Positions 499 through 51,854 of a stretch of 64,000 nt of DNA are shown here, one piece after another. Source of the DNA: Minisyncoccota bacterium (GTDB taxonomy: Bacteria > Patescibacteriota > Minisyncoccia > Moranbacterales > UBA2206); the NCBI GenBank assembly GCA_031291955.1, contig JARLIA010000005.1, positions 74,034 to 138,033 on the forward strand. Reading direction: 5' to 3'. The notes under the pieces were generated by a model. It saw nothing but the letters and a program-made list of their open reading frames with translations, did not search any database and was not told the DNA's origin. The stretch's first letter is position 1; each line of letters starts with the position of its first letter. The translations under genes were made by a program, and so were the position numbers.

Positions 499-1485
499 CT
501 ACAGAACAAATCCGATTTTCTTTTTCACTTCCTCCATTTTGGCGGTCGCCAGCAGCCGGACTTTTTCGGCTCCGGCCCGCAAGATTTCCAGCACTTTTTC
601 GTCGTCGTATTCTTTGAGTTTTTTCTGGAACGGTTCCAAGAAAGCGATCGTCACATCGGCGAGACCGTTTTTGAATTCGGCGTAGCCTTTGCCGGCGTAT
701 TCTTTCTCAATCTCTTCCGGCTTTTTGTCGGCCAGCAAGGAATAAATATTGATCAGATTTTTCAGGGCCGGTTTCTCGTCGGAATAAACTATTTCCGAAC
801 CGGAATCGGTGACGGCTTTTTTGATTTTCCGCCGCACCGTTTCTTCGTCGTCGGTGAGCGCGATGTAATTATATTCGGATTTCGCCGATTTAGACATCTT
901 TTTGGTCGGGTCATCCAAGCCCATAATGTTGGCGCTTTCTTTGGTTGTGTAGCCTTTGGGAAGGATGAAAGTCTCGCCAAATTTATTATTAAACCGGCTG
1001 GCCAAATCTCTTGTCAGCTCAATGTGTTGCATTTGATCTTTGCCGACCGGAACTAAATTAGTATCATAAAGAATAATATCGGCCGCCATGAGTACGGGGT
1101 AGTCAAACAGCCCCATACTAATCTTTGATTTGTCCAGCTTTTCCGATTTATCCTTGAATTGCGTCATTCTTTCCATCTCGGGAATTTTGGTAATCGTATT
1201 TAAAATCCAAGCCAACTCGGTGTGTTCAGAAACGTGCGACTGGATGAAGATAGAACACTTGGACGGATCGATGCCGGCGGCCAGATATATTTTGGCGATT
1301 TCGATGGTTTTTTTCTTGAGGGCTTCCGGATCCTGGGGGACGGTGATGGCGTGGAGATCGACCACGCAAAAAATCGAGTCGTACTCGTCCTGGAGTTTGG
1401 CCCAATTTTTGATGGCGCCCAAATAGTTGCCTAAATGCAGGTTGCCACTCGGCTGGATGCCGGAAAAGATGCGAGGTTTATTCAT
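499..1485 (-). CDS. trpS: Tryptophanyl-tRNA synthetase
   Basis: It is a class I aaRS. The HIGH-like motif (GNLHLGNY) and KMSKS are present. N-terminal MNKPRIFSGIQPSG is typical of TrpRS. I placed the start at the internal ATG (M37 of the listed ORF). Confidence 0.9.
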   Translation of the reverse strand: MNKPRIFSGIQPSGNLHLGNYLGAIKNWAKLQDEYDSIFCVVDLHAITVPQDPEALKKKTIEIAKIYLAAGIDPSKCSIFIQSHVSEHTELAWILNTITKIPEMERMTQFKDKSEKLDKSKISMGLFDYPVLMAADIILYDTNLVPVGKDQMQHIELTRDLASRFNNKFGETFILPKGYTTKESANIMGLDDPTKKMSKSAKSEYNYIALTDDEETVRRKIKKAVTDSGSEIVYSDEKPALKNLINIYSLLADKKPEEIEKEYAGKGYAEFKNGLADVTIAFLEPFQKKLKEYDDEKVLEILRAGAEKVRLLATAKMEEVKKKIGFVL

Positions 1486-1490
1486 ATAGC

Positions 1491-1523
1491 AAGTATAAAG
1501 TATCAAGTATAAAGTATCAAGTA
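1491..1523. repeat. Tandem 14-mer (AAGTATAAAGTATC x2.3) in the divergent trpS/pilin promoter region
   Basis: A direct tandem repeat is visible at 1491-1523. Confidence 0.5.
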
Positions 1524-1616
1524 GAGACGGCGATTCATCGCGCTGTCCGCCGTATCTTGTGTGGAACGGTTTTTTGGAATAGAATAAAAGCATAAATCAA
1601 AACATCAAATCCGGCC

Positions 1617-2099
1617 ATGCAAAATAAAAACAAAAAAGGATTCACCTTGATAGAAATTTTGACAATCGTGGCCATAATTTCTATTTTGGTGTCGATGATT
1701 TTGGTCAGCATCTATGGAGCCAAAGTCAAGGCGGGGGACAACGCCGCTTTTACCAGCATTCAGTCTTCGGCTTCGGCCGCCTACATGTGTCTTTTGGCTG
1801 AATCGTCAGGAGTTAGTCTGACTGTACCACATGACGCGTCTTCGCCCGATGTTTGTTCTGTGGGCGGTTCGTCGTCATGGCCGCCACTGACCAAGGATAG
1901 TTGGCACTACGATGTTTCCGGAAGCGACGGTTTTTTCTGGTGTTCTATAAATGGAAGCAACCCGCCAAATACTTGCAGTTCTCCCGGATCGGGCGGTTGC
2001 GGTTACGTGGCTACGAGTGGCACTTTTTGCTATATTCTGCAAAATGGAACCAAAAAAATGTGGTGCACGGTTGACGGCTGCCGCAAGACGGGATTTTAA
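1617..2099 (+). CDS. Type IV pilin / prepilin-type N-terminal cleavage-methylation domain protein. At 160 aa it is the candidate major pilin. The C-terminus is Cys-rich.
   Basis: MQNKNKKGFTLIEILTIVAIISILV is the class III signal peptide motif (G/FTLIE), followed by a hydrophobic helix. Confidence 0.75.
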   Translation: MQNKNKKGFTLIEILTIVAIISILVSMILVSIYGAKVKAGDNAAFTSIQSSASAAYMCLLAESSGVSLTVPHDASSPDVCSVGGSSSWPPLTKDSWHYDVSGSDGFFWCSINGSNPPNTCSSPGSGGCGYVATSGTFCYILQNGTKKMWCTVDGCRKTGF

Positions 2100-2130
2100 A
2101 ATATATTTCTTTTGGGTGAAAAGAAAAAAA

Positions 2131-2150
2131 CGGACTTAGTCCGTTTTTCT
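2131..2150. terminator. Bidirectional rho-independent terminator between convergent genes
   Basis: A perfect hairpin AAACGGAC-TTA-GTCCGTTT is flanked by an A-run and a T-run. Confidence 0.5.
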
Positions 2151-2156
2151 TTTTAT

Positions 2157-2981
2157 TTATTTGCAAGGTTGGGTGAGGATGGGCATGGCGCCGCCGGAAC
2201 AGTGGGGAGGAAATTTTTTGATAACCTGTCTGGTTTGGATCCCTTGGTTGCAAGTGTTCCAATTGCTGTAGGCAAAATTCTGACACTCAAGCGGGACGTA
2301 GTCGCTGCTTTCCGGGCCGCAACTGACTTGGTTTTTGGTAACAAAAATCAGAGCGATAACCAAGAGAACGACAGCAACGAGACCCAAAAAGGTCAGACCT
2401 TTCCAGGTGCGCACCTTTTTCCGGCTGGCCACCACCACTCCGTTTTGCCAAAAGTTTCCCAGCTCGCCCGCGATCTTGTCAATCTCTCGGTCCGAGTCCT
2501 CCTTGAGGCGGGTTTCCATTTGACGGGAACCTTTTCGGACCGTTCCTAAATAATCGGCCAGCGTTACGATGCCGACAATATTTTTCTCGCTATCCACGAC
2601 CGGAAAAGTAGTGAACTTGGTTTCTTTGACTTTGTCCATCAGTGTTGCCACGTCGTCTTCAACTGAAAGCGTCAAAGGATTGGCAGTCATAATGTCTTCG
2701 GCTTTGGCCGTGGCAAGAGTTTCGATCTTTTTTTTCAAATCACTCGGCAAGTGCTCGGCCACTTGGCTTTCTTCCAAGAATTTCAGATAGGTTGGGAAAT
2801 ATATGTCGTCAAATTTCTTGAGGAAGAAGTCGTCTTCGGTGATAAGGCCGACCACTTTTTTTCCTTCTGTTACCGGCACGCCATGGAAGCGATTGGTGAA
2901 CATCAGATCGGAAACTTTGGCAATAGCGGTTTCCGGCGAAACGGTGACGACGTCCCTGGTCATTATGTCTTTTATTTGCAT
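2157..2981 (-). CDS. Tandem-CBS-domain protein with a C-terminal TM segment and a Cys-rich extracytoplasmic tail
   Basis: A CBS pair is present (DIMTRDVVTV..., IMTANPLTLSVEDDV...). A hydrophobic stretch LTFLGLVAVVLLVIALIFV follows, then a 60-aa tail containing eight Cys. Confidence 0.7.
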   Translation of the reverse strand: MQIKDIMTRDVVTVSPETAIAKVSDLMFTNRFHGVPVTEGKKVVGLITEDDFFLKKFDDIYFPTYLKFLEESQVAEHLPSDLKKKIETLATAKAEDIMTANPLTLSVEDDVATLMDKVKETKFTTFPVVDSEKNIVGIVTLADYLGTVRKGSRQMETRLKEDSDREIDKIAGELGNFWQNGVVVASRKKVRTWKGLTFLGLVAVVLLVIALIFVTKNQVSCGPESSDYVPLECQNFAYSNWNTCNQGIQTRQVIKKFPPHCSGGAMPILTQPCK

Positions 2982-17845: not shown

Positions 17846-20068
17846 ATGGAAAACAAATTCAAAATATCCTCCAAATTCAAGCCCGAAGGCGATCAGCCGC
17901 AGGCGATTGAAAAATTGACCGCGGGGCTTGAGGCTGGAAAAAAGTTCCAGACGCTTTTGGGCGTGACGGGGTCGGGGAAGACTTTTACCATTGCCAACGT
18001 CATTGAAAATATCCAAAAACCGACTTTGGTCATTGCGCCCAACAAGACTTTGGCGGCGCAACTGGCGCAGGAATTTCGGACTTTCTTTCCCAAAAGCGCG
18101 GTGGAATATTTCGTTTCCTATTATGATTATTATCAGCCGGAAGCCTACATCGCTTCCTCCGACACATACATCGAAAAGGAATCCCAGATCAACGACGAGA
18201 TCGACCGGCTTCGCCACGCGGCCACCGCGGCGCTCATGAGTCGCCGCGATGTCATCATTTGCGCTTCGGTGTCGTGTATCTACGGTTTGGGCAGCCCGGA
18301 ATATTATCGGAATATTACGCTGGAATTGGCGGTGGAGGACGGTTATTCGCAGGTTCGGGCGTCCACGCCCGAACCGCATAGTCCTGGTAAAACAAAATTA
18401 TCAGTCAAATCTGAATCGAAAATTTCCGCAGATAATAAAAAATTACCAGAAATGGCAGGTTCAATCGGGACGATTGAACCTGCAAAAAAAAATAATAGGG
18501 ACGAGATTGTAAAAAAATTGATCGACATGCAATATAATCGGAGCGATGTTTTGGCGCGGGGGAAATTCCGGCTGACCGGGAATACTCTGGAAATTATGCC
18601 GCCCGGACGGGAAATTGTAACGAGGATTGAAATGGAAGGGGGCAGTATTAAAAAAATATTCGAGTACGATTTTCTTACCGGCGAGGAACTGGGAAAGCTG
18701 GAAAAAGCGGTCATCTATCCAGCCAAACATTTCGTGGTGCCCGAACCGGTGATGGAAGGCGCTTTGGAAAAAATTCAAAAAGAAATGGAAGAGCAAGTGG
18801 AATTTTTCAAGCGTCAGGGAAAGATTCTGGAAGCGGAAAGGATTTCCCGTCGGACGCGCCAGGACATTGAAATGATGAGGGAAATCGGCTACTGCAATGG
18901 AATTGAAAACTATTCCCGCTTTCTCACTGAACGCCAGCCCGGTGAACCCCCCTACACTTTGATCGATTATTTTCCCGACGATTTTCTCATGGTGATTGAC
19001 GAATCGCATGTGACCGTGCCGCAACTCAACGGAATGTATAACGGCGACCACGCCCGGAAAGTCTCACTGATCGACAACGGCTTCCGCCTGCCTTCGGCTT
19101 TTGATAACCGCCCGCTTAAATTTCCGGAGTTCGAGAAAAAAATAAACCAGCTGATTTTCACGTCGGCGACACCGGCAAAATATGAAATGGAAAAATCAAA
19201 AATAGACCCCCTCTCCCGTAATCGGGAGAGGGTTGGGGAGAGGGCAACGCGGAACTCGGCGCCCTCTCTGTCGCGAGTACGCGACATCTCTCCCGAGTAC
19301 GGGGGAGAGGGAAATATTGTGGAACAAATTATTAGGCCGACCGGACTGATTGATCCAGAGCTGGAAATCAAGCCGACCAGAGGACAGGTGAAAGATGTGA
19401 CGGAGGAGATCAAAAAAATAATCGCCCGGAAGGAGCGGGTGCTTATCACCACGCTGACTAAAAAAATGGCCGAAGACTTGTCGGATTTCTTGAAAGAGAG
19501 CGAAGTGAAAGCTGAATATCTCCATTCCGGCGTGGACACTTTGGACCGGGTGCGGATTTTGGAACAATTGCGCCGGGGAAAATTTGATGTTCTGGTCGGA
19601 GTAAATTTGCTGCGGGAAGGGCTCGATCTTCCCGAAGTTTCTTTGGTGGCGATTCTCGACGCGGACAAAGAAGGATTTTTGCGGAGCGAAACGTCGCTCA
19701 TCCAAACCATCGGCCGCGCCGCGCGGAATGTCAAAGGAAAAGTTATTCTCTACGCCGACACCATTACCGGTTCGATGAAACGAGCTATCGACGAGACAAA
19801 CCGTCGCCGGGCAATCCAGACGGAATATAACAAAAAACATCGTATCACTCCAAAAACCATCAAGAAGAAAATCCAGTCGATCGTCGACCATGAAATCAAA
19901 CCTCAGGTGACGCGCGACTTTTCCCAATTGGAATCATTGGAGGATATGGCCGGCTACATTAAACAACGCGAGCGCGAAATGAAAGACGCGGCCCGGAATT
20001 TGGAATTTGAAAAAGCGGCGATCATCCGGGACGAGATAAGTGAGTTGAGGAAGCTGCAGATAAAATAG
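17846..20068 (+). CDS. uvrB: Excinuclease ABC subunit B, with two in-frame palindrome-bearing insertions
   Basis: Motifs present: GVTGSGKTF, the beta-hairpin region YVSYYDYYQPEAY, the helicase motifs, and the C-terminal UVR domain AAIIRDEISELRKL. The protein is 740 aa, against a typical ~660. Confidence 0.95.
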   Translation: MENKFKISSKFKPEGDQPQAIEKLTAGLEAGKKFQTLLGVTGSGKTFTIANVIENIQKPTLVIAPNKTLAAQLAQEFRTFFPKSAVEYFVSYYDYYQPEAYIASSDTYIEKESQINDEIDRLRHAATAALMSRRDVIICASVSCIYGLGSPEYYRNITLELAVEDGYSQVRASTPEPHSPGKTKLSVKSESKISADNKKLPEMAGSIGTIEPAKKNNRDEIVKKLIDMQYNRSDVLARGKFRLTGNTLEIMPPGREIVTRIEMEGGSIKKIFEYDFLTGEELGKLEKAVIYPAKHFVVPEPVMEGALEKIQKEMEEQVEFFKRQGKILEAERISRRTRQDIEMMREIGYCNGIENYSRFLTERQPGEPPYTLIDYFPDDFLMVIDESHVTVPQLNGMYNGDHARKVSLIDNGFRLPSAFDNRPLKFPEFEKKINQLIFTSATPAKYEMEKSKIDPLSRNRERVGERATRNSAPSLSRVRDISPEYGGEGNIVEQIIRPTGLIDPELEIKPTRGQVKDVTEEIKKIIARKERVLITTLTKKMAEDLSDFLKESEVKAEYLHSGVDTLDRVRILEQLRRGKFDVLVGVNLLREGLDLPEVSLVAILDADKEGFLRSETSLIQTIGRAARNVKGKVILYADTITGSMKRAIDETNRRRAIQTEYNKKHRITPKTIKKKIQSIVDHEIKPQVTRDFSQLESLEDMAGYIKQREREMKDAARNLEFEKAAIIRDEISELRKLQIK

Positions 20069-20217
20069 TGAAAAAAGTTATCCACAGGAGGGCGCTTGCT
20101 CATTCTTGTCGGAGTTCTATAATTGAAACAGGCAAGGTTTGGAAACAAAGATACAATTAATGTTTCCGCGTATGAAATGCTATTTGGCTGGAAAATTAAA
20201 TGGCATTGCAATCATAA

Positions 20218-20244
20218 TGAACACGTTTTAGGCGTGTTTTTTTG
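20218..20244 (+). terminator. Rho-independent terminator downstream of uvrB
   Basis: AACACG-TTTTAGG-CGTGTT is followed by TTTTTTTGTT. Confidence 0.45.
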
Positions 20245-20257
20245 TTCCCCGAAAACC

Positions 20258-20286
20258 CCTTGCAATTTTTCTCGAAACGTGCTATA
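20258..20286 (+). promoter_or_regulatory. Candidate promoter (TTGCAA, 17-nt spacer, TATAGT)
   Basis: The elements are visible in sequence. It would drive the ~330-nt structured region below. Confidence 0.35.
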
Positions 20287-20292
20287 GTCGGC

Positions 20293-20620
20293 CGTTAGGA
20301 TAGGAAGATGGTTCTTTCAAAACTTGGTGCGTTTCAATTCTTAAATTAAACTTAGCTGTCTCACTAAAGACAATATGTATGGATGTTATTTTTAGCGAGG
20401 CAGTTAAGTTCTCAATATAAATTTTGCTCGCAGGAGCCACTTGAGCGAAGCACTCGTGGCATTTATCCGAAAGGATTTATACCATGCGCTCGGGAAAGGC
20501 CACTTCTGGGAAGCACTCGCGGCGGAAATCTCACCGTGCCCTAAAGGAGAGAAAAATTTATCTCTGCCAAGCCTCCGGGAAAGAAAGACATGTCTTTCTT
20601 TCCCATCCTCATTTTTGTTT
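20293..20620 (+). other. Candidate structured RNA or riboswitch-like leader: promoter, internally repeated ~60-nt unit, GNRA hairpin, terminator hairpin
   Basis: Two copies of GCCACTT..G.GAAGCACTCG.GGC are present. There is a GAAA-tetraloop hairpin ATCCGAAAGGAT. A perfect 14-bp hairpin GGGAAAGAAAGACA/TGTCTTTCTTTCCC with a T-rich tail lies at 20582-20615. No protein homology is evident for ORF 20441-20653. Confidence 0.3.
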
Positions 20621-20677
20621 GATTATACGGAAAAAGCAGTTATGCAGTTATAAAGTTTATTAGGAAAGGAGTTTGCC

Positions 20678-20890
20678 ATGTACGCTGCAAATGCGATGAG
20701 TGAGAGTCTGGTTTTGGCGGCAGTAACACTGGCGCCTCAGCCTGAGATGGCAGCAGTTCAGGGGATGTTCTTGTGTCGCCGCTGCGATGATTGTGGCGTT
20801 AGAGCTGATTTAAAATCAGCGGAGGGCAGCAGAGTAGTTCTTCAATGCCCCCGGTGTCAGAGGGAGTACACCTTTTTCAGTAGGGAGTAA
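20678..20890 (+). CDS. Small zinc-ribbon protein (70 aa)
   Basis: Two CxxC pairs are present (CRRCDDCG...CPRCQ). A good RBS (AGGAAAGGAG) lies 7 nt upstream of the ATG. Confidence 0.45.
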   Translation: MYAANAMSESLVLAAVTLAPQPEMAAVQGMFLCRRCDDCGVRADLKSAEGSRVVLQCPRCQREYTFFSRE

Positions 20891-21027
20891 TAAAAATGAA
20901 AACATTGAGGATTGAGACCGTGCCGGTAATCGGGACTTGTCAAAAGCATTGCTGACGAGTCCCTTTAAATTTGTCTAAAAATAAATACTAATGTAGAATA
21001 TGGCAGTAACTAATAAGAATAAAATAA

Positions 21028-22065
21028 ATGACGAACATGACGAAAAAAATAATCCTCATCGTGGTGATTGTGATTGTCGCGCTGGGGCTGGCGGGGTATA
21101 AATTTGCCAAGCCGGATTTTTCCAAGATTTTTGCCAAAAGCCAGACGACTAAGGTTCTGACGCCAGACCAGGCTAAAGTCAAAGCCCTGGATTATATCGA
21201 CAATAATCTGGTGCAAAAGGGCACAAAAGTAAGCGTGAAAAACATTGCTGAAGCGAACGGTCTTTATAAATTGGACCTGGATGTCAGCGGCCAGACCATT
21301 ACAGCCTATATGACCGAGGACGGTTCGCAGTTTTTTCCGAACGCTATGGACATGAATGCCGCGCCGGCCAAGCCAGCGGCGGCCGATCAGCAGCAAGCCG
21401 CCCAACAGCCGATTCCCAAAACAGACACGCCAAGCGTTCAACTTTTTGTGATGAGCTATTGTCCTTATGGCACGCAGATAGAAAAAGGGATTTTGCCGGC
21501 TCTTTCCGCTTTGGGAAGCAGTGTGAAATTTAATCTTGAATTTGTCGATTATTCCATGCACAACGATGCTTCGACCGGCGATCAGAAAGAACTCAACGAA
21601 AATTTGCGTCAGTATTGCATCCAGAAGCTCCAGCCGGATAAATTGGGAACTTACTTGAATTGCTTTTTGCAAAAAGGCCAGGGCACGGAAAGCGCTTGTA
21701 TGACCCAAGCCGGTGTGGACGCGGCGCCGGTCGCGACTTGTATGACAGCGACCGACAACCAATACAGCGTCAGTAAGAACTTTAAAGATCAAAGCACCTA
21801 CAATGGTCAGTTCCCGACGTTCAAAGTCGACGAAGCGGATAATCAGAAATATAACGTTCAAGGCTCGCCGACTTTGGTGATCAATGGAGTGGTTGATCAG
21901 GCTGGAAACCGTGATTCGGCTTCGCTGCTTAAGGATATTTGTTCAGCTTTCAATACAGCACCGGCCGCTTGCAGTACCGCTAAACTTTCTTCCACCGCGC
22001 CGTCGCCGGGATTCGGCACCGGTACGGACACGAGCGGTTCAAGCGCTAGTTGCGCGACGAAATAG
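21028..22065 (+). CDS. Membrane-anchored thioredoxin-fold (DsbA-like) thiol-disulfide oxidoreductase
   Basis: There is an N-terminal TM helix. The CPYG active-site motif occurs in VMSYCPYGTQ. Further Cys pairs lie downstream. Confidence 0.6.
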   Translation: MTNMTKKIILIVVIVIVALGLAGYKFAKPDFSKIFAKSQTTKVLTPDQAKVKALDYIDNNLVQKGTKVSVKNIAEANGLYKLDLDVSGQTITAYMTEDGSQFFPNAMDMNAAPAKPAAADQQQAAQQPIPKTDTPSVQLFVMSYCPYGTQIEKGILPALSALGSSVKFNLEFVDYSMHNDASTGDQKELNENLRQYCIQKLQPDKLGTYLNCFLQKGQGTESACMTQAGVDAAPVATCMTATDNQYSVSKNFKDQSTYNGQFPTFKVDEADNQKYNVQGSPTLVINGVVDQAGNRDSASLLKDICSAFNTAPAACSTAKLSSTAPSPGFGTGTDTSGSSASCATK

Positions 22066-22103
22066 AGTCGCGAAAGCAGAGCGAATGGTTAGCGAATAAG
22101 AGC

Positions 22104-22150
22104 GAATCCTTAAAGATTCGCTCTTATTATTATTCGCTTTAATTCGCTCA
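22104..22150 (+). terminator. Hairpin terminator after the dsbA-like gene
   Basis: AATAAGAGCGAATC-CTTAAA-GATTCGCTCTTATT. AGCGAAT/ATTCGCT repeats recur around it. Confidence 0.4.
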
Positions 22151-22241
22151 TCATTTGCGATTAGTTATCCACAGCCGGCGCTTGCGATGATATTTAATCA
22201 GTGCTAGAATAACACTGTAATAAACTTAGATAATAAAAAAT

Positions 22242-22919
22242 ATGCAAAACACACAATCGCTTACCGGAAAGCAAAAGAACCTGCTCGAAACGATCCGGGA
22301 ATATGTTGACCAGCGAAATGAAAATCCGACCAGTTATCGCCTGCATAAATACTTGGAAGCGCAGGGCGTGAGAGACAGTTTGAAGTCTGTCATGCAAGTC
22401 ATTGAAGCTTTGGAGAAAAAAGATCTGGTGAAACGTGACGGCGACAAGCGGCTCTATCTCATTGAGAACGGCAATTATGCCAATCTGAAAAACATTTTTT
22501 CCGTGCCGGTCTATGGCTTGGCCTCTTGCGGCGAAGCCTTGGCCTACGCCGAGGACAACGTGGATGGGTTTTTGCAAATCTCCAAAGCCTTGTTTCGCGG
22601 GGCCGACTCGGCCAAACTTTTCGCCGTCAAAACTTTGGGTGATTCGATGGACAAAGATGGCATAAACGATGGCGATTACGTTATCTTTGAAAAATACGAA
22701 TACGACAAAGGAGAGGAGCTGGAAGGGAAAATCGTGGTGGCGGTCATCAATGGAATGGCGACGATCAAGAGATATAAAAAAGTGAGCGACGAAATCATCG
22801 GTCTTTTCCCGCGCTCGAAAAACACCGTCCACCAGCCGATCTTCATCCATTCTTCCGACTCGATCCTGGTCGCCGGGATTTTCCGGAAAGTGCTGCCGGT
22901 GAAATACGTAAGTTTGTAG
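22242..22919 (+). CDS. lexA: LexA repressor (S24 peptidase)
   Basis: An N-terminal winged-helix DNA-binding domain is present. The catalytic Ser lies in GDSM and the catalytic Lys in ATIKRYKK. A cleavage-site-like LASCG is present. Confidence 0.85.
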   Translation: MQNTQSLTGKQKNLLETIREYVDQRNENPTSYRLHKYLEAQGVRDSLKSVMQVIEALEKKDLVKRDGDKRLYLIENGNYANLKNIFSVPVYGLASCGEALAYAEDNVDGFLQISKALFRGADSAKLFAVKTLGDSMDKDGINDGDYVIFEKYEYDKGEELEGKIVVAVINGMATIKRYKKVSDEIIGLFPRSKNTVHQPIFIHSSDSILVAGIFRKVLPVKYVSL

Positions 22920-23014
22920 GCTTGCTTAAAATATTTTTCCGTACTACCCTGTATTAGATAAAAGTAAATACTAAGTACCCGATCTGGGGAAATTTTTGGC
23001 GTTGGGAAATTTTT

Positions 23015-26000
23015 ATGGACAAAATCATCATAAAAGGCGCGCGGGAGCATAATTTGAAGAACGTCGACTTGGAGCTGCCGCGGAATAAATTTATCGTTTT
23101 TACGGGAATTTCTGGGTCAGGGAAGTCGACCATGGCTTTTGATACTATTTTTGCCGAGGGGCAACGGCGCTATCTCGAAAGTCTTTCCAGTTACGCTCGG
23201 CAGTTTTTGGGGCAAATGAATAAGCCTGACGTGGACTATATTGAAGGTCTGTCGCCGGCCATTTCCATCGACCAGAAAGCGGCGTCCCACAATCCGCGTT
23301 CGACGGTTGGAACGGTGACGGAAATCCACGATTATTTGCGATTGCTATATGCCAAGATCGGCCGGCCACATTGTCCGATCTGCTCCCGGGAAATTACGAA
23401 GTTGTCGACAGATGAGATTGTTGATCGGATTTTGGAGATGTGCGCCGCGAAACCTCATCCGCCCCGGAGTACTGGGGCACCTTCTCCTTATAAAGGAGAA
23501 GGAGATAATGGAAGGGGCTGTTCTATCGAAATTCTATCGCCGGTGGTTCGCCAGCGGAAAGGGGAATATTCGACGATGCTGGCTGAGATGTTCCGGCGGG
23601 GGTTTTCCCGCGCTTACGTCAATGGGGAAAAATACGAACTGTCGGCCAAGATCGGAGACGAGTTGGAATTGGCCCGCTACAAAAAACATAATATTGATAT
23701 CGTGGTAGATGAGGTGGAGATATCTAGCGACAACATTTCGCGAATATTTGAAGGAGTGGAAAAGGCGCTGAAGTTGTCGGACGGACTGGTCAAGATAAGA
23801 TCCGAAATCCGAAATACGAAATCCGAAACAATGTCAAAATCAAAAATTAAAAATTCAAAACAAAACAATACGGAAATTGTTTTCAACCAAAAACTTTCTT
23901 GTCCGATCCATGAGATTGAGTTTCCGGAGTTGGAGCCGCGTTTGTTTTCTTTCAACAGTCCGTTTGGCGCTTGTCCGGCTTGCGAAGGATTGGGAACGAA
24001 AAAAGAAATCGACCCGGCGCTGGTGGCGCCGGATAAAAACAAAACGATTGCTGAGGGTGGCATCTTCCCTTGGAGCTACAAACGGAATAACTGGCAAGGG
24101 TCGGTTCTCCGGGCGGTTTGCAATCATTTCCACATCAAAGACAATGTGCGCCTCCGTGACCTTTCGGAAGATGACCTCAACATCTTAATGTTCGGCGGAC
24201 CGGATGCGACCGATATGATAGATAAGGAAGAAGCGGAAGAAATACCCGTCACTTTGAAATCAAAAACCGGTTCAAGCTGGAAATATTACATGACCTGGCG
24301 CGGAGCGGTCGGATATCTTCAAGATCGATATTTCAAGACCGATTCGGATGCGGTGCGGGCGGATATTGAAAAATATATGTCGCAAAATCCGTGTTCGGTC
24401 TGTCACGGCGCGCGTTACAAAAAAGAAGTCTTGCTGGTGACGGTCGGCGAATCCCGCCCGCAACGCTTCGCTAACGCAAGTGTTAGCTTGCGTAGCGATG
24501 CGGGCGGGAAAAATATTGTCGAAGTCTCAAATGTGTCTGTGGCTGAGACGCTTAAATTTTTCGAAAGACTGGAATTGAATAAAAATGAGCAGATCATCGC
24601 CGGGAGAATTTTGAAGGAAATTATTAATCGCCTAGGCTTTTTGGAAAACGTGGGACTGGGATATTTGACTTTGGCCAGATCCGCGGCGACACTAGCCGGC
24701 GGGGAAGCGCAACGGATCCGCTTGGCATCGCAAATCGGTTCGGGTCTCACCGGCGTTTTGTATATTTTGGACGAACCGTCGGTCGGTCTTCACTCGCGCG
24801 ACAACACTAAATTGCTCGAGACGCTTTTTCATCTGCGCGATCTGGGAAACACGCTAATCGTGGTTGAGCACGATGAAGAGACGATGCGGGAGGCCGACTA
24901 TTTGGTTGACATCGGACCGGGAGCGGGAAAATTGGGAGGTAAAATTGTGGCGCATGGCACGCCGGTAGAAGTTATTCGCGATAAAAAATCTTTAACCGCG
25001 GCATATTTGCGGGGTGACGCGAAAATAGAAATGCCGAAATTCCGCCGGCCAGTCAAGAATAAAAAAACGATTGTTGTCCGCGGCGCGCGCGAACACAATT
25101 TGAAAAACATTACCGTCGAGTTTCCTTTAAAAGTTTTGACGTGTGTGACGGGCGTGTCCGGCTCGGGGAAATCCACATTGGTAGAGGACATCCTTTATAA
25201 AGCCTTGGCGTCAAAAATCATGCGGACGCTCGACCGGCCGGGGAAACATTCGGAGATTGTCGGCACGCAATATGTTAACAAAGTGATCATGATCGACCAG
25301 TCGCCGATCGGTCGGACGCCGCGCTCCAATCCGGCGACTTATACCGGGCTCTTTACGCCGATCCGGGAATTATTTTCCCAGACCCGGGACGCCAAATCCA
25401 AGGGTTATGGTCCGGGGCGCTTTTCGTTCAACATCCGGGGCGGACGCTGTGACAACTGCCAAGGCGACGGCCAGCTTAAAATTGAGATGCAGTTCATGCC
25501 GGATGTCTATTTGCCTTGCGATGTCTGTCACGGAAAAAGATACAACAGTGAGACCTTGAAAGTGAAATACAAGGACAAAAACATTTCCGAAGTTTTGGAC
25601 ATGACGGTCAGCGAAGGGCGCGAGTTTTTTGAGAATTTTCCGGCTATTCACGACAAGCTGGCGGTTTTGGAAGACGTCGGCTTGGGCTATATCCAACTCG
25701 GGCAGTCCGCCACCACACTTTCCGGCGGGGAAGCGCAAAGGATAAAACTGGCCACGGAACTGGCAAGGAGGGCGACCGGCGACACTTTGTATATTCTGGA
25801 CGAACCGACGACTGGCCTCCATTTTGACGACATTAAAAAACTTTTGAATGTTTTGAACCGCTTGGTCGATGCCGGCAACACAGTGGTGGTGATCGAACAC
25901 AATTTGGACGTCGTCAAAACCGCCGATTGGATCATTGACTTGGGTCCGGAAGGCGGAGAAGGCGGCGGAAAAATTATCGTTACCGGTCCGCCGGAAGAAG

Positions 26001-26062
26001 TGGCGAAATATCATAAGGAAAGCTGGACGGGAAAGTATCTGAGAGATGTATTGAAAAAGTAG
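23015..26062 (+). CDS. uvrA: Excinuclease ABC subunit A, with two in-frame palindrome-bearing insertions
   Basis: Both ABC modules are present ([18 protein letters not shown]) with LSGGEAQRI signatures and Zn-finger Cys pairs. Length is 1015 aa. Confidence 0.95.
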   Translation: MDKIIIKGAREHNLKNVDLELPRNKFIVFTGISGSGKSTMAFDTIFAEGQRRYLESLSSYARQFLGQMNKPDVDYIEGLSPAISIDQKAASHNPRSTVGTVTEIHDYLRLLYAKIGRPHCPICSREITKLSTDEIVDRILEMCAAKPHPPRSTGAPSPYKGEGDNGRGCSIEILSPVVRQRKGEYSTMLAEMFRRGFSRAYVNGEKYELSAKIGDELELARYKKHNIDIVVDEVEISSDNISRIFEGVEKALKLSDGLVKIRSEIRNTKSETMSKSKIKNSKQNNTEIVFNQKLSCPIHEIEFPELEPRLFSFNSPFGACPACEGLGTKKEIDPALVAPDKNKTIAEGGIFPWSYKRNNWQGSVLRAVCNHFHIKDNVRLRDLSEDDLNILMFGGPDATDMIDKEEAEEIPVTLKSKTGSSWKYYMTWRGAVGYLQDRYFKTDSDAVRADIEKYMSQNPCSVCHGARYKKEVLLVTVGESRPQRFANASVSLRSDAGGKNIVEVSNVSVAETLKFFERLELNKNEQIIAGRILKEIINRLGFLENVGLGYLTLARSAATLAGGEAQRIRLASQIGSGLTGVLYILDEPSVGLHSRDNTKLLETLFHLRDLGNTLIVVEHDEETMREADYLVDIGPGAGKLGGKIVAHGTPVEVIRDKKSLTAAYLRGDAKIEMPKFRRPVKNKKTIVVRGAREHNLKNITVEFPLKVLTCVTGVSGSGKSTLVEDILYKALASKIMRTLDRPGKHSEIVGTQYVNKVIMIDQSPIGRTPRSNPATYTGLFTPIRELFSQTRDAKSKGYGPGRFSFNIRGGRCDNCQGDGQLKIEMQFMPDVYLPCDVCHGKRYNSETLKVKYKDKNISEVLDMTVSEGREFFENFPAIHDKLAVLEDVGLGYIQLGQSATTLSGGEAQRIKLATELARRATGDTLYILDEPTTGLHFDDIKKLLNVLNRLVDAGNTVVVIEHNLDVVKTADWIIDLGPEGGEGGGKIIVTGPPEEVAKYHKESWTGKYLRDVLKK

Positions 26063-26067
26063 AAATT

Positions 26068-27327
26068 ATGACGACCATCCTCCAAAAGCTGAAAAACCTG
26101 CCTCAATCACCGGGGGTGTATATTTTCTATGATAAAAATAGAAATATTTTGTACGTGGGAAAAGCGACGTCGCTTAAAGATAGGGTTGGTTCGTATTTTC
26201 AGAATAAGATTGGGGCGGTGCGGACGATTGAGATGTATATGAATGAAGTGACGGATCTGGAGATCAAGAAAACCGACACGGTTTTGGAAGCGTATATTTT
26301 GGAACAATCTTTGATCAAAAAACTTCAGCCGAAATATAACGCGATGGGGAAAGACGATAAGTCATTTACGTACGTACTTCTTTCTAAGGAAGAATTTCCG
26401 AGATTCGCGGTGGTACGGGAAACTGATTTGGATAGTGTAAAATCATCGCCCCGTGGGGGGCAAAAATCTTTGCCCCCCACGGCGAAGGTTTATGGTCCGT
26501 ATACGTCGAAACGGCAAATTGAGGCGGCCTTGAAAATCTTACGGAAAATTTTTCCCTATCACAACCGGCCGGAACATTCGGAGTCCCGGTGTTTTGATTA
26601 TCATCTTGGGCTTTGCCCCGGACCGTATGACGGGAAGATTTCCAAAAAAGAATACGTCAAAAATATCCGGGCGATAAAAATGATCTTGGAAGGGAAGAAG
26701 AAAGGACTTATAAACCGGATGAAAAAAGAGATGGAAGAATGTTCAGACAAGGCTGAATTTGAAAAGGCGGCGGAGGTGCGGAACAGGATTTTTGCGTTGC
26801 AACACATCCAGGACGTGGCGCTGATATCTGATCATAGAGACGCAATTAATCGCGTCTCTGTGGACGACGCAATGATGCGCATCGAAGGTTATGATATTTC
26901 CAATATTTCCGGGAAATTTGCGACTGGTTCGATGGTGGTGTTTGATAATTCAGACGGTGAAATGCAGCCGAATAAATCGCAATATCGTAAATTCAAAATC
27001 AAAAATGTTGAAGGCGCCAATGACGTGGGGGCAATGGAAGAAATGCTTACCAGGAGATTTCGGAACAATTGGCCGCGGCCGAATTTGATTTTGCTCGACG
27101 GCGGAGCCGGGCATTTGAATATGGCGCGGAAAGTCCTGCGGAATCACAAAATAGAAATTCCCTTGCTGGCGGTGGCCAAAGGGCCGGCGCGGAAAAAACT
27201 GGATCTGCGAAGTTTCGGGACCGTGCCGGAACTGCCAAAAAATATCATCGAACAAGTGAGAAACGAAGCGCATCGCTTCGCGATCAGTTATCATAGGAAA
27301 TTGAGAGGTAAATCGTTCACGGATTAA
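26068..27327 (+). CDS. uvrC: Excinuclease ABC subunit C, short form lacking the C-terminal (HhH)2 domain
   Basis: A GIY-YIG N-terminus is present (PGVYIFYDKNRNILYVGKA). A UVR motif (FEKAAEVRNRIFALQ) follows. The RNase-H-like endonuclease domain is present (ILLDGGAGHL). The protein ends at 419 aa. Confidence 0.8.
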   Translation: MTTILQKLKNLPQSPGVYIFYDKNRNILYVGKATSLKDRVGSYFQNKIGAVRTIEMYMNEVTDLEIKKTDTVLEAYILEQSLIKKLQPKYNAMGKDDKSFTYVLLSKEEFPRFAVVRETDLDSVKSSPRGGQKSLPPTAKVYGPYTSKRQIEAALKILRKIFPYHNRPEHSESRCFDYHLGLCPGPYDGKISKKEYVKNIRAIKMILEGKKKGLINRMKKEMEECSDKAEFEKAAEVRNRIFALQHIQDVALISDHRDAINRVSVDDAMMRIEGYDISNISGKFATGSMVVFDNSDGEMQPNKSQYRKFKIKNVEGANDVGAMEEMLTRRFRNNWPRPNLILLDGGAGHLNMARKVLRNHKIEIPLLAVAKGPARKKLDLRSFGTVPELPKNIIEQVRNEAHRFAISYHRKLRGKSFTD

Positions 27328-27407
27328 GCCTTGAAGTGGCCAATGCTTTGACATCTCTTGCCAAATCCTCTACAATACATCTCTAGTAAGCAATCTTCTT
27401 TCAAACT

Positions 27408-30221
27408 ATGCCCACTCAAAAATCTTCTCCTAAAAATACTTTCTCACTGAAGGATAAAATCGTCATCCGTGGCGCGCGGGTGAATAATTTGAAGAACATC
27501 GACGTGGACATTCCGCGGGATAAATTGGTCGTAGTGACAGGTCTTTCCGGGTCGGGGAAATCTTCTTTGGCTTTTGACGTGGTCTACGCCGAAGGCAATC
27601 GGCGGTATCTGGAAGGCATGTCGAGCTACGCCCGGCAGTTTTTGGATGTTTCGGCTAAACCGGACGTGGACAAAATAGAGAATTTGAGCCCGACCATCTC
27701 AATTGATCAAAAAAGCTTGAGTCGTTCACCTCGCTCGACGGTCGGGACGCTCACGGAAATTTACGATTATTTGCGAGTGCTCTACGCCAAAGTGGGAACG
27801 CCCTATTGTCCTCATTGTCTCTTGCCGATGGGGCGCAAAAAGAACCAGGAAATTTTGGAGGAAATTTTGGTTTTGCCGGAAAATACCCAAGTGGCGGTCC
27901 TGGCTCGGATAAAAAATGAAGGTCAGAGTGTTAAGGATATTCTCAAAAACATCAGTCAGCTTGGTTATGCCCGGGCGCGGGTTGGCGGTAAAATCGTCTT
28001 GATTGCCGACGCCTTGCTTTTTCCGGAAGAAAACTTGAGCGGCAACGTCGAAATCGTGGTTGACCGGATCAATCTCAAGAAAAAAAATCCCGATCACGAA
28101 CGGATGTTGGATTCTATTGAGACTGCTTTTAAATTGGGGAAAGGTTTTATGGCGGTCGCAATCGATAATGGTGAGAGCCGGATTTATAATCAAAATTTTG
28201 TTTGCAGCAACTGCTATTTCAAAATTTCGGAAATCACGCCCAAGAATTTTTCTTTCAACAGTCCCGAAGGCGCCTGCGAACATTGCGCGGGAATGGGTAC
28301 TATCCAGGAAGTGGACGAGGATCTGATCATTCCTAACAGAAATCTCACTTTGGCCGAAGGAGCTATTATGCCGCTCGCCAAGTCCGGCGGCCGGGCTGGG
28401 TATCTCGATACTCTCACCAAGATCGGCGAGAAAGCGGGTTTTTCCGTGAATGAACCGGCGCGGAACATTTCCAAGGAAAATTTGAAAGTTATTTTTCATG
28501 GTTTTGGTGTGCCTGGTACTCCTGGTTATTTTGAGGGAGTGGTGCCGATGATTCGAAAAAAATATACCGAAGCGGCCACTCAGACGGCCCGGACCGACAT
28601 CGAAAAATATATGCTGGAAAAAGATTGTCCCGAGTGTGGAGGCAAGCGTTTGAAAAAAGAATATTTATCCGTCTTGATGAGCGGGAAATCGATCGACGAT
28701 TTGGTCCGGATGGATATCGATACTCTCATTTTATTTTTAGAAAATTTACGGACTGCCGATTTGAGTGCCGCCAAAGCGGAAATCGTGGCGCCATTGGCAA
28801 AAGAAATGATCGCCAAAGCCAAGGCGCTCAAGAACGTCGGCTTGGAATATCTGTCACTTTCCCGCCGGGCCGATTCCATTTCCGGCGGCGAAGGTCAGCG
28901 CATCCGGCTCGCAACTCAAATTGGATCGGAACTTTCCGGTATTATCTATGTTCTGGACGAACCGTCTATCGGTCTCCATTCCCGAGACAATGAAAAGTTG
29001 ATCGACACGATGGAAAAGCTGAAAGAGAACGGCAATTCTCTGATCGTGGTCGAGCATGACAAAGACATTATCGAGTGCGCCGATTGGGTGATCGACATGG
29101 GTCCCGGGGCAGGGGAGTTCGGCGGGGAAGTTATCTTTTCCGGTTCGGTGAAAAAAATGGAGAGCGTCGCGACATCCACTGCCAAGTTCCTTTCCGGCCG
29201 GGAAAAAGTAACGGTTAAGAAGAAACCGCGAACGGCATCGAAGAACTTTTTGGAAATCCTGGGTGCCGCAGAACACAATTTGAAAAATATCGACGTCCGG
29301 ATTCCACTCGGCCGTTTTGTTGCCGTCTCGGGCGTGTCCGGTTCGGGGAAATCCACTTTGGTAACCGACATTCTGGCTCGAGAGCTGGCCCGGCATTTTT
29401 GGAAGGCTAAGAAAAATCCCGGAAAGCATGATAAAATCACTGGTCTTAACCGCTTGGATAAAGTGATTAATATCGATCAATCGCCGATCGGCCGGACGCC
29501 GCGTTCCAATGCCGCCACCTACACCGGTGTCTTTTCACTTATTCGGGAACTTTTCTCCGCCACCGAAGAGGCGAAAAAACGGGGCTACGATGCCAGTCGC
29601 TTCAGTTTTAATGTCCGGGGCGGCCGTTGCGAAGATTGCCAAGGCGACGGAACAAAAAAGATCGAGATGCATCTTTTGCCGGATATGTATGTCAAATGCG
29701 AAACTTGCCAGGGAACGCGCTATAACGCCAAGACGCTTGATATTGAATATCAGGGTGCTACCGTCGCCCAGGTGCTGGATATGAGTGTTTCCTACGCGCT
29801 TCGCTTTTTCCATAAATCGCCGCTTATCGCGGCTAAACTGAAAACGCTGGAAGAAGTCGGCCTGGGCTACATCAAACTGGGACAGAGCGCCACAAATCTT
29901 TCCGGCGGAGAAGCGCAGCGGATAAAATTGGCTACCGAGCTCGCCCGGAAATCGACCGGCAAGACTTTGTATATTTTAGATGAACCGACCATCGGGTTGC
30001 ACTTTGAAGATGTGCGGAAATTGCTTCAGGTGCTGGACGCGCTGGTCGAAAAAGGCAACACTGTTCTTGTGGTGGAACATAATTTGGACGTCATCAAGAA
30101 CGCCGACTGGGTGATTGATCTCGGGCCGGAAGGCGGAAACGGGGGCGGCGAAATTGTTTACGCCGGCGAACCGAAGGGGCTGAAGAAAGCGAAGAGGAGT
30201 TGGACAGGAAAATATCTGTAA
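27408..30221 (+). CDS. uvrA: Excinuclease ABC subunit A paralog (937 aa) without palindromic insertions
   Basis: Full two-module UvrA architecture is present ([18 protein letters not shown], two LSGGE signatures). Confidence 0.9.
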
Positions 30222-31349: not shown

Positions 31350-31435
31350 CGGTTCATGTAAACATATTAACATTTAAACATATTAACATGTTAAAAAAGT
31401 CTTTTGTTAACATGCTAATATGCTAACAGGCGAAC

Positions 31436-44311: not shown

Positions 44312-44414
44312 GTCATATTAGCATGTTAACATTTAAACATGTTAACAAGAAATTTTTTCAATAAAAATGTTAATATGCTAAAATAATAATGTGCTAAAAT
44401 GTTAAAATGATCCC

Positions 44415-50699: not shown

Positions 50700-51854
50700 T
50701 TACTTCAACTCCAAATTGGCGTCAGTTTCCAATTTTTTCCAGTTAGCTTTGCATATTTTTTTATCCGGCGCCAGCTTGTGCCGGTAATAGGCGGCGGCAG
50801 CGATCATGGCGGCGTTGTCTAAAGAGTAGCATGTATCAGGCATGATGTATAAAGTATTTTTTAATCCTTCTTTTATTTTTTCGCCGAGCTGGTGGCGTAA
50901 TTCGGAATTGGCGCTGACGCCGCCGGCCAAGAGGATTGTTTTAGGATTATATTTTTTGGCGGCGGAAATTGTTTTGGAAACCAGAACGTCACAGACTGCT
51001 TGCTGGAATTCGCGGCAAACTTCGGCCACAAATTTTTTATCCCCCAGCAATTTTTCATTTTTCTTCACCAAGTATAGCACGGCCGTCTTCAGTCCGGAAA
51101 AGGAAAAATTAAAATTCTTGGAGTTTATCATGGGCCGGGGAAGGGATATCGCATATCGCATATCGCGTAACGTGGAACCTGTATTTATTTTGCGCTCTGC
51201 GTTTTGCGCTTCATGCTCCACGCTTTGCGTTGCGCGTTTTGCGATTTCTGGTCCGCCGGGATAGCTCAAATTTAAGATGCGAGCCACTTTGTCAAAAGCT
51301 TCGCCGGCCGCGTCGTCCAGCGTCTGGCCGATGATTTCATAAACCAAATGTTTTTTCATCAGCACCAACTGCGTATGCCCGCCGGAAACGACGAGGCAGA
51401 GAATGGGGAATTGAATGGAAGAATTTTGAATTTGTTTGGGATTTGAGATTTTGGATTTAGTGCTTACGCGAATTTTGTCTTCGATAAAATTCGCGTAGAT
51501 GTGTCCTTCGATGTGATGGATGCCGATGAGCGGTGTGCGCCAAAGATAGGATAAAGTCTTGGCGGCTGTCGTTCCGACCAGAAGGGCGGGAATCAACCCT
51601 GGGCCGTTGGTGACAGCGATGAGATCGATGTCGCGCGAGGTTATGCCAGCTTCTTTCAGCGCGGCTTCGATTACGGGCGTAATATTTTTGAGATGTTCCC
51701 GGGCAGCCAGGTTCGGCACCACGCCGCCCCATTTGGCGTGGAGTTTGACTTGGGAAGAGACAATGCTCGAAAGCACCGTTAGATTATCTTTTTCTCCCGC
51801 CAAAACGGCCGCCGCCGTTTCATCGCAGGAAGTTTCAAGGCCGAGGATAAGCAT
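50700..51854 (-). CDS. tsaD: tRNA N6-threonylcarbamoyladenosine synthase TsaD, with a ~30-aa repeat-encoded insertion
   Basis: MLILGLETSCDETAAAVL and the metal-binding GIHHIEGH are present. The protein is 384 aa against a typical ~340. The insertion is encoded by a GCGTTTTGCG/CTCCACGCT repeat tract at 51120-51250. Confidence 0.9.
   Translation of the reverse strand: MLILGLETSCDETAAAVLAGEKDNLTVLSSIVSSQVKLHAKWGGVVPNLAAREHLKNITPVIEAALKEAGITSRDIDLIAVTNGPGLIPALLVGTTAAKTLSYLWRTPLIGIHHIEGHIYANFIEDKIRVSTKSKISNPKQIQNSSIQFPILCLVVSGGHTQLVLMKKHLVYEIIGQTLDDAAGEAFDKVARILNLSYPGGPEIAKRATQSVEHEAQNAERKINTGSTLRDMRYAISLPRPMINSKNFNFSFSGLKTAVLYLVKKNEKLLGDKKFVAEVCREFQQAVCDVLVSKTISAAKKYNPKTILLAGGVSANSELRHQLGEKIKEGLKNTLYIMPDTCYSLDNAAMIAAAAYYRHKLAPDKKICKANWKKLETDANLELK

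Follow-up and report, generated by a model that had tools for sequence, protein, structure and literature searches.

The uvr gene cluster and the extra segments of UvrA1

The DNA analysed in this study, referred to as the window, is a 64-kb stretch of a Candidatus Moranbacteria genome (Candidate Phyla Radiation (CPR)/Patescibacteria), and the subject is a set of palindromic segments that lie in frame within one of its two uvrA genes, uvrA1. The gene belongs to a repair cluster (17846-30221) that runs in one orientation through uvrB, unknown open reading frames (ORFs), a gene for a LexA-like S24 peptidase, uvrA1, a short uvrC and a second uvrA, here uvrA2 (Table 1). This arrangement is kept in relatives. 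The best matches of UvrA1 are UvrA proteins of Candidatus Moranbacteria (Parcubacteria, CPR) with at most 92% identity, and the orthologs range in length from 944 to 1073 residues. Scans of genome and metagenome collections with UvrA gave at least 18 Moranbacteria loci, and 20 Moranbacteria uvrA genes were used for the comparison of inserts. The closest UvrA1 orthologs are found in the loci L081 and L082 (92 and 90% amino acid identity, respectively), and the genes of the window, L081 and L082 are all about 84% identical in DNA.

Alignment of UvrA1 to its paralog UvrA2 and to the M. tuberculosis UvrA places extra residues at approximately 144-167, 262-285 and 480-498, denoted sites A, B and C. 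The first-pass annotation of this DNA had proposed that two extra segments coincide with palindromes, and the alignment agrees for 144-167 and 480-498. Around residues 398-430, UvrA1 also differs from the paralog by a stretch of native UvrA sequence lost from the latter. Among solved structures, fragments of the UvrB-binding domain match UvrA1 residues 168-271, and constructs with a deleted insertion domain resume at residues 496-497. The three inserts are therefore located at domain junctions; by this alignment, inserts A and B flank the UvrB-binding domain and insert C ends the insertion domain. An AlphaFold2 model built from 27 close orthologs is poor (mean predicted local distance difference test (pLDDT) score of 59.7) and was used for the coil call only; it predicts coil with pLDDT below 50 at residues 145-167, 266-285 and 480-496.

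The two palindromic inserts of 57 and about 72 nt are multiples of three and free of stop codons. Among the 20 Moranbacteria genes, uvrA inserts fall into two classes, a Lys/Asn-rich unstructured filler and GC-rich folding segments, and every GC-rich insert outfolds nearly all control windows of the same length from its own gene. The segment at site B is non-palindromic and unstructured (minimum free energy 0, z = +1.65, where the z-scores of sites A to C refer to single-stranded DNA folding against 200 dinucleotide shuffles). It lies outside the hairpin elements and is conserved in L081 and L082.

Table 1. Genes and sequence features of the repair cluster, in window coordinates unless a locus is named
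Feature	Coordinates	Strand	Description	Basis
uvrB	17846-20068			
uvrB insert 1	18329-18483	+	about 49 residues; hairpins 18352-18375 (10-11 bp) and 18455-18483 (13 bp)	
uvrB insert 2	19199-19313	+	three or four hairpins of the families seen in uvrA1: 19209-19232 (CCCTCTCCCG/CGGGAGAGGG) and, with AGTA loop, 19269-19286 and 19288-19309	
LexA-like S24 peptidase gene	22242-22919			
uvrA1	23015-26062	+	class I UvrA, 1015 residues	ORF list; full-length match to solved UvrA structures, E = 0
Site A composite	23453-23502	+	tag CCTCATCC (23453-23460), variable hairpin 1 (23461-23478), A23479, conserved hairpin 2 (23480-23502)	
Site B segment	23802-23870	+	four copies of the 7-nt unit TCCGAAA (23802-23829), then A-rich low complexity (SEIRNTKSETMSKSKIKNSKQNN)	sequence
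Site C element	24452-24508	+	in-frame palindromic element, 57 nt, encoding SRPQRFANASVSLRSDAGG	L082/L081 alignment; z = -7.3; related copies
Nested insert of site C	24472-24491	+	20 nt, TAACGCAAGTGTTAGCTTGC, in the loop of the 36-nt core CCCGCCCGCAACGCTTCGC/GTAGCGATGCGGGCGGG	core without the nested piece in viral contigs L168, L261 and L224
uvrC	26068-27327		short UvrC, 419 residues, without the C-terminal helix-hairpin-helix region	
uvrC palindrome	26451-26482	+	in-frame perfect 14-bp palindrome CCGTGGGGGGCAAA-AATC-TTTGCCCCCCACGG, peptide SSPRGGQKSLPPTAK	z = -5.9 (sliding fold)
uvrC hairpin	26836-26859	+	AGAGACGC-AATTAATC-GCGTCTCT, peptide RDAINRVS, in the linker before the endonuclease domain	
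uvrA2	27408-30221		second UvrA, 50% identical to UvrA1; 937 residues in the first-pass annotation	
Y1 transposase gene	L167, 94-531		IS200-like (PF01797), with different hairpins at its ends; adjoins the uvr cluster	

Folding of the palindromic segments

Hairpin 1 of site A, GCCCCGG-AGTA-CTGGGGC, has seven pairs of which the sixth is G·T, and in hairpin 2 a 3-nt loop caps a stem of 10 bp without mismatch (CCTTCTCCTT/AAGGAGAAGG). At site C, an outer perfect stem of 10 bp (11 bp with T24452/A24509) encloses inner stems of 5 and 7 bp and the loop TGTTAG. All three palindromes listed for uvrA1 in the first-pass annotation were thus found at the coordinates given there, and its word "perfect" is right for 23480-23502 and for the outer stem of 24453-24508 but not for 23461-23478, given the G·T pair. 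The L082 ortholog of hairpin 1 has a perfect CCGGGGC arm.

Folded as single-stranded DNA, 23457-23505 and 24450-24511 yielded z-scores of -6.1 and -7.3, and in both cases none of the 200 shuffles was equally stable. Both strands of the two segments fold about equally well. In a GC-corrected 60-nt sliding fold, no other stretch of the window folds as strongly as 24451-24510 (z = -7.35), and the remaining strong fold signals inside ORFs are located in uvrB and uvrC. The AGTA loop of hairpin 1 is indeed common to the uvrB hairpins 19269-19286 and 19288-19309, as had been noted before; in total, the window contains two copies of the hairpin 2 type (starting at 19209 and 23480) and three AGTA-loop hairpins. 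No strong hairpin was found in uvrA2 by palindrome and sliding-fold scans. An intragenic terminator was considered for the uvrA1 hairpins and rejected, as neither has a T tail, and a structured RNA family was rejected because the only Rfam matches in the window are tRNAs.

Presence, absence and nesting of the site C element

The uvrA gene of L082 lacks exactly nucleotides 24452-24508 and has the empty site GGGGAA/AAAAATATT, and the gene of L081 holds the insert with 56 of 57 nucleotides identical, the single difference being in the loop. The insert is not accompanied by a target-site duplication, since the filled site reads GAA/.../AAAAAT and the empty one GAA/AAAAAT; the filled site GCT/.../GAG shows no duplication either. 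The exact presence and absence of 57 nt, together with family members elsewhere in uvrA, in further genes and even in other phyla, bears out the acquisition that the first-pass annotation had suggested. Its own counter-hypothesis, that the segments are native UvrA sequence, is at odds with the empty site in L082 and with folding far beyond chance.

Members of the site C family (CCCGCCCGCAACGCTTCGC...AGCGATGCGGGCGGG) occur in uvrA of the window and of L081, in uvrB of L081 and at a separate uvrA site of L163, L081 thereby carrying two copies (uvrA and uvrB). In L081 uvrB and in L163, the position of the nested insert is taken by different pieces of like design, with a TCGC repeat after them. 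The codon boundary before AAAAAT at site C is occupied by three different families, one in the window and L081, one in L163 and one in L164 and L165.

Covariation and distribution of the site A composite

Compared with insert-free orthologs, the extra coding segment at site A extends from about 23444 to 23515. Its general form is a tag, a variable hairpin, an A and the conserved hairpin CCTTCTCCYT-loop-ARGGAGAAGG. The complete composite (CCTCAYCC, hairpin and CCTTCTCCYT/ARGGAGAAGG) is present in four uvrA genes (window, L082, L166 and L167) and twice in uvrC of L003, and a basic form without hairpin 1 is present at two uvrA sites, in the genes of L084 and L008, and in uvrC of L083 and L008. 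The 12 copies, composite or basic, all lie in the sense direction. The variable hairpin reads GCCCCGG-AGTA-CYGGGGC in the window and L082, GCCTCGG-AGTA-CCGAGGC in L166, which is a two-sided compensatory change, GCCCCGACAT-CAGA-ATGTCGGGGC in L167, and GCCC-TTCG-GGC and GTCCGC-TGCG-GCGGAC in the two L003 copies. For hairpin 2, 18 copies with five arm types contain a single mismatch, compared with a mean of 22.4 in shuffled arm pairings (0 of 10,000 as low), although this test overstates independence because some of the 18 copies are orthologous.

The composite is found at the same site in orthologs down to approximately 78-79% protein identity (L166 and L167) with compensatory changes in the stem, indicating that it is old. 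The earlier description of the acquisitions as recent therefore fits only 24452-24508, itself common to L081 at about 84% DNA identity, and not site A, which is shared down to about 78% identity. At site A, the L081 gene contains an unrelated hairpin of smaller size, so that the composite is common to the window and L082, the reverse of the site C pattern. Judged from these three genes, the distribution of the two elements requires more than one gain, loss or exchange. Across lineages, site A is occupied by at least five unrelated palindromes, and many of these are unique sequences.

Related hairpins in uvrB, uvrC and viral contigs

Six element families were distinguished: the CCTCAYCC-tagged hairpin, CCCGCCCGCA...TGCGGGCGGG, CCCGCCTCG...CGAGGCGGG, CCCCCACACC...GGTGTGGGGG, GTAGAGACGC...GCGTCTCTAC and the AGTA-loop hairpins. 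The uvrC hairpin at 26836-26859 is a member of the GTAGAGACGC...GCGTCTCTAC family, which is found at the same uvrC position in relatives. In the fetched loci, the CCCGCCTCGACTCGCGGAGA...GTCGACGCGAGGCGGG family is represented at three uvrA sites, in uvrB, in uvrC and by one intergenic copy, and the CCCCCACACCAA...TTGGTGTGGGGG family, with an A-rich centre of 50-70 nt, at two uvrA sites. Elements of the CCCCCACACC...GGTGTGGGGG family reach about 100 nt in relatives. The genic CCCGCCTCG copies all have one orientation, and the sole reversed copy is intergenic. The uvrB palindrome 18455-18483 was a candidate for having one native arm, which was rejected when the ortholog alignment placed both arms inside the insert.

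A scan with the 5' half of the site C element detected its 36-nt core CCCGCCCGCAACGCTTCGCGTAGCGATGCGGGCGGG in unrelated high-GC viral contigs. The viral contig L168 has two copies, at 794-829 (minus strand) and 2805-2840, with a core copy in frame in a long ORF (545-2857, minus strand, family unassigned), where it reads GPARNASRSDAGGG. The 19-mer CCTCACCCCRACCCTCTCC of the basic form occurs at at least 120 viral-contig loci with a median GC content of 0.63, and GTAGAGACGC-N2-10-GCGTCTCTAC at 93, including copies inside portal, sheath, capsid and tape-measure genes. The 28-nt palindrome GTAGAGACGC-N8-GCGTCTCTAC lies in Mu-like and lambda-like portal, tail sheath, capsid and tape measure ORFs (L572, L528, L544, L553, L573, L523 and L505). 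In-frame hairpin repeats appear to be common in phage structural genes too, and identical cores of 19-36 nt are found in such genes of unrelated hosts. On the other hand, the scan of viral contigs gave no match to the CCCGCCTCGACTCGCGGAGA family, and for 15-17-nt patterns the counts were compatible with chance, with palindromic context in 7 of 118 matches. A protein search with a 68-residue concatenate of four element-encoded reading-frame peptides returned 4 candidates and 0 matches.

Concentration of hairpins in uvrA1, uvrB and uvrC

A hairpin census with perfect arms of at least 10 bp and a spacer of at most 40 nt was performed on 26 Moranbacteria sequences, namely the window and 25 fetched loci (425 kb). 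The density per kb is 0.24 in uvrA1, 0.29 in uvrB and 0.83 in uvrC, compared with 0.12 both in other ORFs and in uvrA2. Thus, 46 hairpins fall in 130.5 kb of uvrA1, uvrB and uvrC, and 26 in 249 kb elsewhere in ORFs, an approximately 3.4-fold difference (binomial p = 6e-7). Census hairpins outside the repair genes are mostly AT-rich. Of 42 family-pattern matches, 37 are inside uvrA1, uvrB or uvrC and three more directly adjoin them. The other annotated genes of the window, among them those for RNase J (two copies), IMPDH, GuaA, GroEL, type IV pilus proteins and glycogen enzymes, contain no family member. The hairpins had been called specific to one uvrA copy, and this is supported by their absence from uvrA2 of the window and by 13 uvrA2 orthologs with the density of ordinary ORFs. 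Applying the same rule to 142 uvrA loci of other phyla (2.0 Mb) revealed no enrichment (0.06 versus 0.13 per kb), and the census method is therefore not biased toward uvr genes.

Other features of the window and its relatives

In two relatives, a gene of the PF05635 family (23S-rRNA-intervening-sequence proteins) is located between the LexA-like gene and uvrA (L165 9430-9804 and the P0092 contig). The uvrA gene of L008, with four hairpin inserts, has an in-frame TAA at 583-585 (EIDP*LVAPD) and an otherwise intact remainder, which may indicate a decaying gene or a sequencing error. The spacer between uvrB and the next ORF (20080-20900) contains strong hairpins at 20347-20406 and 20577-20604, the latter with a 12-bp stem, and has no Rfam match; a small Cys-rich ORF in this spacer (20679-20891) has a counterpart in L167.

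Outside the cluster, tsaD (50700-51854, minus strand) contains a near-perfect, AT-rich 15-bp palindrome at 51465-51497. One of its arms encodes the conserved YANFI after the HxxxH motif, and the other (KIRV) opens an insert of 18 residues, which the solved TsaD proteins lack. This palindrome looks like a local inverted duplication and not like a family element. Clusters of the 10-mer ATRTTAACAT at 31356-31413 and 44323-44408, immediately upstream of groEL and pilM (12 matches when one mismatch is allowed, 1.8 expected), may represent a shared operator or promoter element.

Origin of the inserts

The uvrA1 palindromes are probably hairpin repeats that resemble repetitive extragenic palindromic (REP) sequences and Rickettsia palindromic elements (RPEs) and that were inserted in frame, without stop codons, at domain junctions, rather than native loops of the protein. 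Such elements would move as single-stranded hairpins by means of an HUH/Y1 tyrosine transposase (RAYT/TIRYT type) that acts in trans from a gene outside the window, a route that fits with the lack of target duplication, the strand bias and the insertion into hairpin loops. Only copies in tolerated linkers with an open frame would survive. Judging from the open frames, the ribosome most likely reads through the hairpins and would add about 19-24 unstructured residues per site.

Several points weigh against this explanation. Pfam searches of 47 ORFs and tblastn with the L167 Y1 protein revealed no transposase gene in the 64-kb window, and tblastn with the same protein gave no match in the other fetched loci. 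The only Y1 transposase among the fetched Moranbacteria loci is that of L167, and a mobilising enzyme for the window is thus entirely postulated. Neither uvrA1 element has an unpaired GTAG or CGTC tag, the defining mark of the published REP superfamilies. The 57-nt inserts of the window and L081 differ at 1 of 57 positions and their flanks at about 6 of 104, so that the inserts are not significantly more alike than the flanks and give no date for the event. The pattern of presence and absence, from which we infer transposition, could also result from precise deletion or from recombination between strains, and the open frame is the basis for assuming that the hairpins are translated.

The concentration in three genes of one pathway leads to the question whether the hairpins are retained for an action in cis on the repair genes, mobility being only their route of arrival. 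They could act as mRNA structures that set translation or decay, or as DNA hairpins or cruciforms sensed by UvrA or another factor, and place the genes under shared control. The higher density in uvrA1, uvrB and uvrC, the 37 of 42 family matches inside these genes, the pairing preserved through compensatory change, the uniform orientation and the same repair-gene bias in other phyla (PMC3733652) all agree with this idea. However, close relatives differ in the presence, position and family of the hairpins, which are missing altogether from some orthologs (P0113 and P0119), making an essential regulatory site unlikely. Sense and antisense strands also fold about equally (Wilcoxon p = 0.054; 30 versus 36 G·U pairs), which leaves no clear signal at the RNA level. 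The same families are furthermore found in phage portal, sheath and capsid genes, and the 142 uvrA loci of other phyla show no enrichment. Taken together, retention for such an action is unlikely.

It is likewise improbable that the concentration of many unrelated families in uvrA1, uvrB and uvrC, which spares uvrA2 and the neighbouring genes, reflects a functional coupling of hairpin DNA with nucleotide excision repair and not tolerance. UvrA might sense extruded hairpins in its own genes, which would amount to a damage-responsive self-control; in another possible version, insertion or retention would depend on gaps opened during repair, made by UvrABC with a preference for sites in cis. Such a coupling would turn a curiosity of 2013 into a mechanism, with the Moranbacteria as its densest natural test set.

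Palindromes can also be made locally by template switching during replication or repair, through fold-back synthesis or quasi-palindrome correction, without any mobile element. Perfect complementarity would then be the direct product of one arm being copied from the other, in line with stems that are nearly always perfectly complementary although their sequences differ between copies, and with the many site A palindromes that are unique sequences. The tsaD palindrome, with one native arm and one insert arm, has the signature of a local inverted duplication, and template switching thus appears to occur in this genome. In both uvrA1 elements, however, the two arms lie inside the insert, and the empty site of L082 has neither. 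Moreover, the same sequences of 19-36 nt are present at unlinked sites, in other genes and in other phyla, which local copying cannot achieve. Template switching is therefore quite unlikely as the origin of the uvrA1 elements, but it could help to keep the stems perfect after insertion.

That the segments are ordinary lineage-specific variable loops of UvrA with coincidental palindromy, or an assembly artefact, is very improbable: the site lengths do vary across UvrA orthologs, and some lineages have non-palindromic Lys-rich fillers there, but z-scores of -6 to -7, a stability reached by none of 200 shuffles, GC-rich inserts in 20 orthologs that outfold almost all control windows, the 57-nt insert in an independent assembly (L081, an ENA sample) and family members elsewhere all contradict it.

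Comparison with known systems

RPEs are in-frame palindromic repeats in unrelated genes, translated into extra peptide segments judged compatible with the protein fold and regarded as selfish DNA (Ogata et al. 2000 Science 290:347 and 2002 Genome Res 12:808, via PMC10969869). They are about 100-150 bp long and occur in genes of many kinds. The elements described here share with RPEs a palindromic repeat in frame in a coding gene, with the frame left open (57 nt and about 72 nt). They differ in being only 18-57 nt long, or up to about 100 nt for CCCCCACACC...GGTGTGGGGG, and thus shorter than the typical RPE. Within the sampled DNA they are, in addition, almost confined to uvrA, uvrB and uvrC. 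Classical miniature inverted-repeat transposable elements have terminal inverted repeats (TIRs), as do the present elements, and a target-site duplication, which is absent here.

Cyanobacterial small dispersed repeats and the GC clusters and double-hairpin elements of mitochondria are mobile hairpins of about 20-50 nt that nest in each other's loops, and such small hairpin units can sit inside coding or structural RNA genes. The very small dispersed repeats of heterocystous cyanobacteria were reportedly treated by Elhai et al. in Genome Res in 2008. To our knowledge, no repair-gene bias has been reported for the cyanobacterial repeats or for mitochondrial GC clusters. Hosts and sequences differ from those of this study, so this is a resemblance only.

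REPINs are extragenic hairpin doublets associated with RAYT genes (Bertels & Rainey 2011, PMC3116915), and tyrosine-transposase (TIRYT) genes are flanked by inverted repeats that contain a GGGGWSAS motif (PMC3733652). Like these REPINs and TIR repeats, for which a single-copy HUH/Y1 tyrosine transposase is the presumed mobiliser in trans, the present elements lack target duplication and have family-specific stems with covariation. In contrast to REPINs, they are located inside genes, and no RAYT or TIRYT gene was found in the window. The tag of the basic form, CTCACCCC or CTCATCC(G), has the reverse complement GGGGTGAG and fits GGGGWSAS, whereas the window tag CCTCATCC, with the complement GGATGAGG, departs from this motif at the first positions. 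Neither the window nor the fetched loci contain a TIRYT gene flanked by site A repeats; the Y1 gene of L167 is flanked by other hairpins.

The closest precedent is the catalogue of GTAG- and CGTC-tagged REPs by Di Nocera, De Gregorio & Rocco (2013, BMC Genomics 14:522, PMC3733652). Intragenic in-frame REPs were found there to be concentrated in uvrA, uvrB, uvrC, uvrD, recBCD, polA and dnaE2, and in some species repair genes are the sole coding sequences with REPs (PMC3733652). Opitutus terrae, for example, has two inserts per uvrA, and others lie in R. conorii uvrB and Thioalkalivibrio uvrA; RAYT tyrosine transposases were proposed to mobilise the GTAG REPs, and none was found for the CGTC REPs (PMC3733652). 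As in those superfamilies, the present elements are short stem-loops inside ORFs, in frame, and single, dimeric or clustered (PMC3733652). Their stems of 7 and 10 bp and loops of 4 and 3 nt (23461-23502) lie within the REP ranges of 5-13 bp and 2-20 nt, and site C (24453-24508) has stems of 10, 5 and 7 bp. The unpaired GTAG or CGTC, however, is absent, with flanks of CATCC/.../ACC and A/.../AGAT at site A, and the GTAG of the site C element lies only in a paired region. The uvrC family GTAGAGACGC...GCGTCTCTAC of the relatives does begin with GTAG, but this pairs with CTAC. Since the uvrA1 elements have a CCTCAYCC tag (site A) or none (site C), they are not classified as GTAG or CGTC REPs, although they are REP-like in behaviour.

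Two further differences concern the host and the density. CPR bacteria were not covered by the report of 2013, and in-frame hairpin colonisation of repair genes, a pattern described once, in Proteobacteria, Verrucomicrobia and Rickettsia, and never explained, is hereby extended to the CPR. The density is higher in the Moranbacteria, with at least nine hairpins in three genes of one cluster and several unrelated families at one codon boundary. Among their orthologs, sites are found both filled and empty, insertions are nested and one codon boundary is occupied repeatedly, which provides a natural series on which targeting, tolerance and function of elements in repair genes can be tested against each other. 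For the annotation of CPR proteins, it follows that length variation and odd peptides such as PSPYKGEG, RSDAGG, PASTRGD and RDAINRVS can be encoded by repeats and should not be taken as functional motifs. The uvrA1 palindromes are hence not a new kind of element but a new and dense CPR instance of a published pattern.

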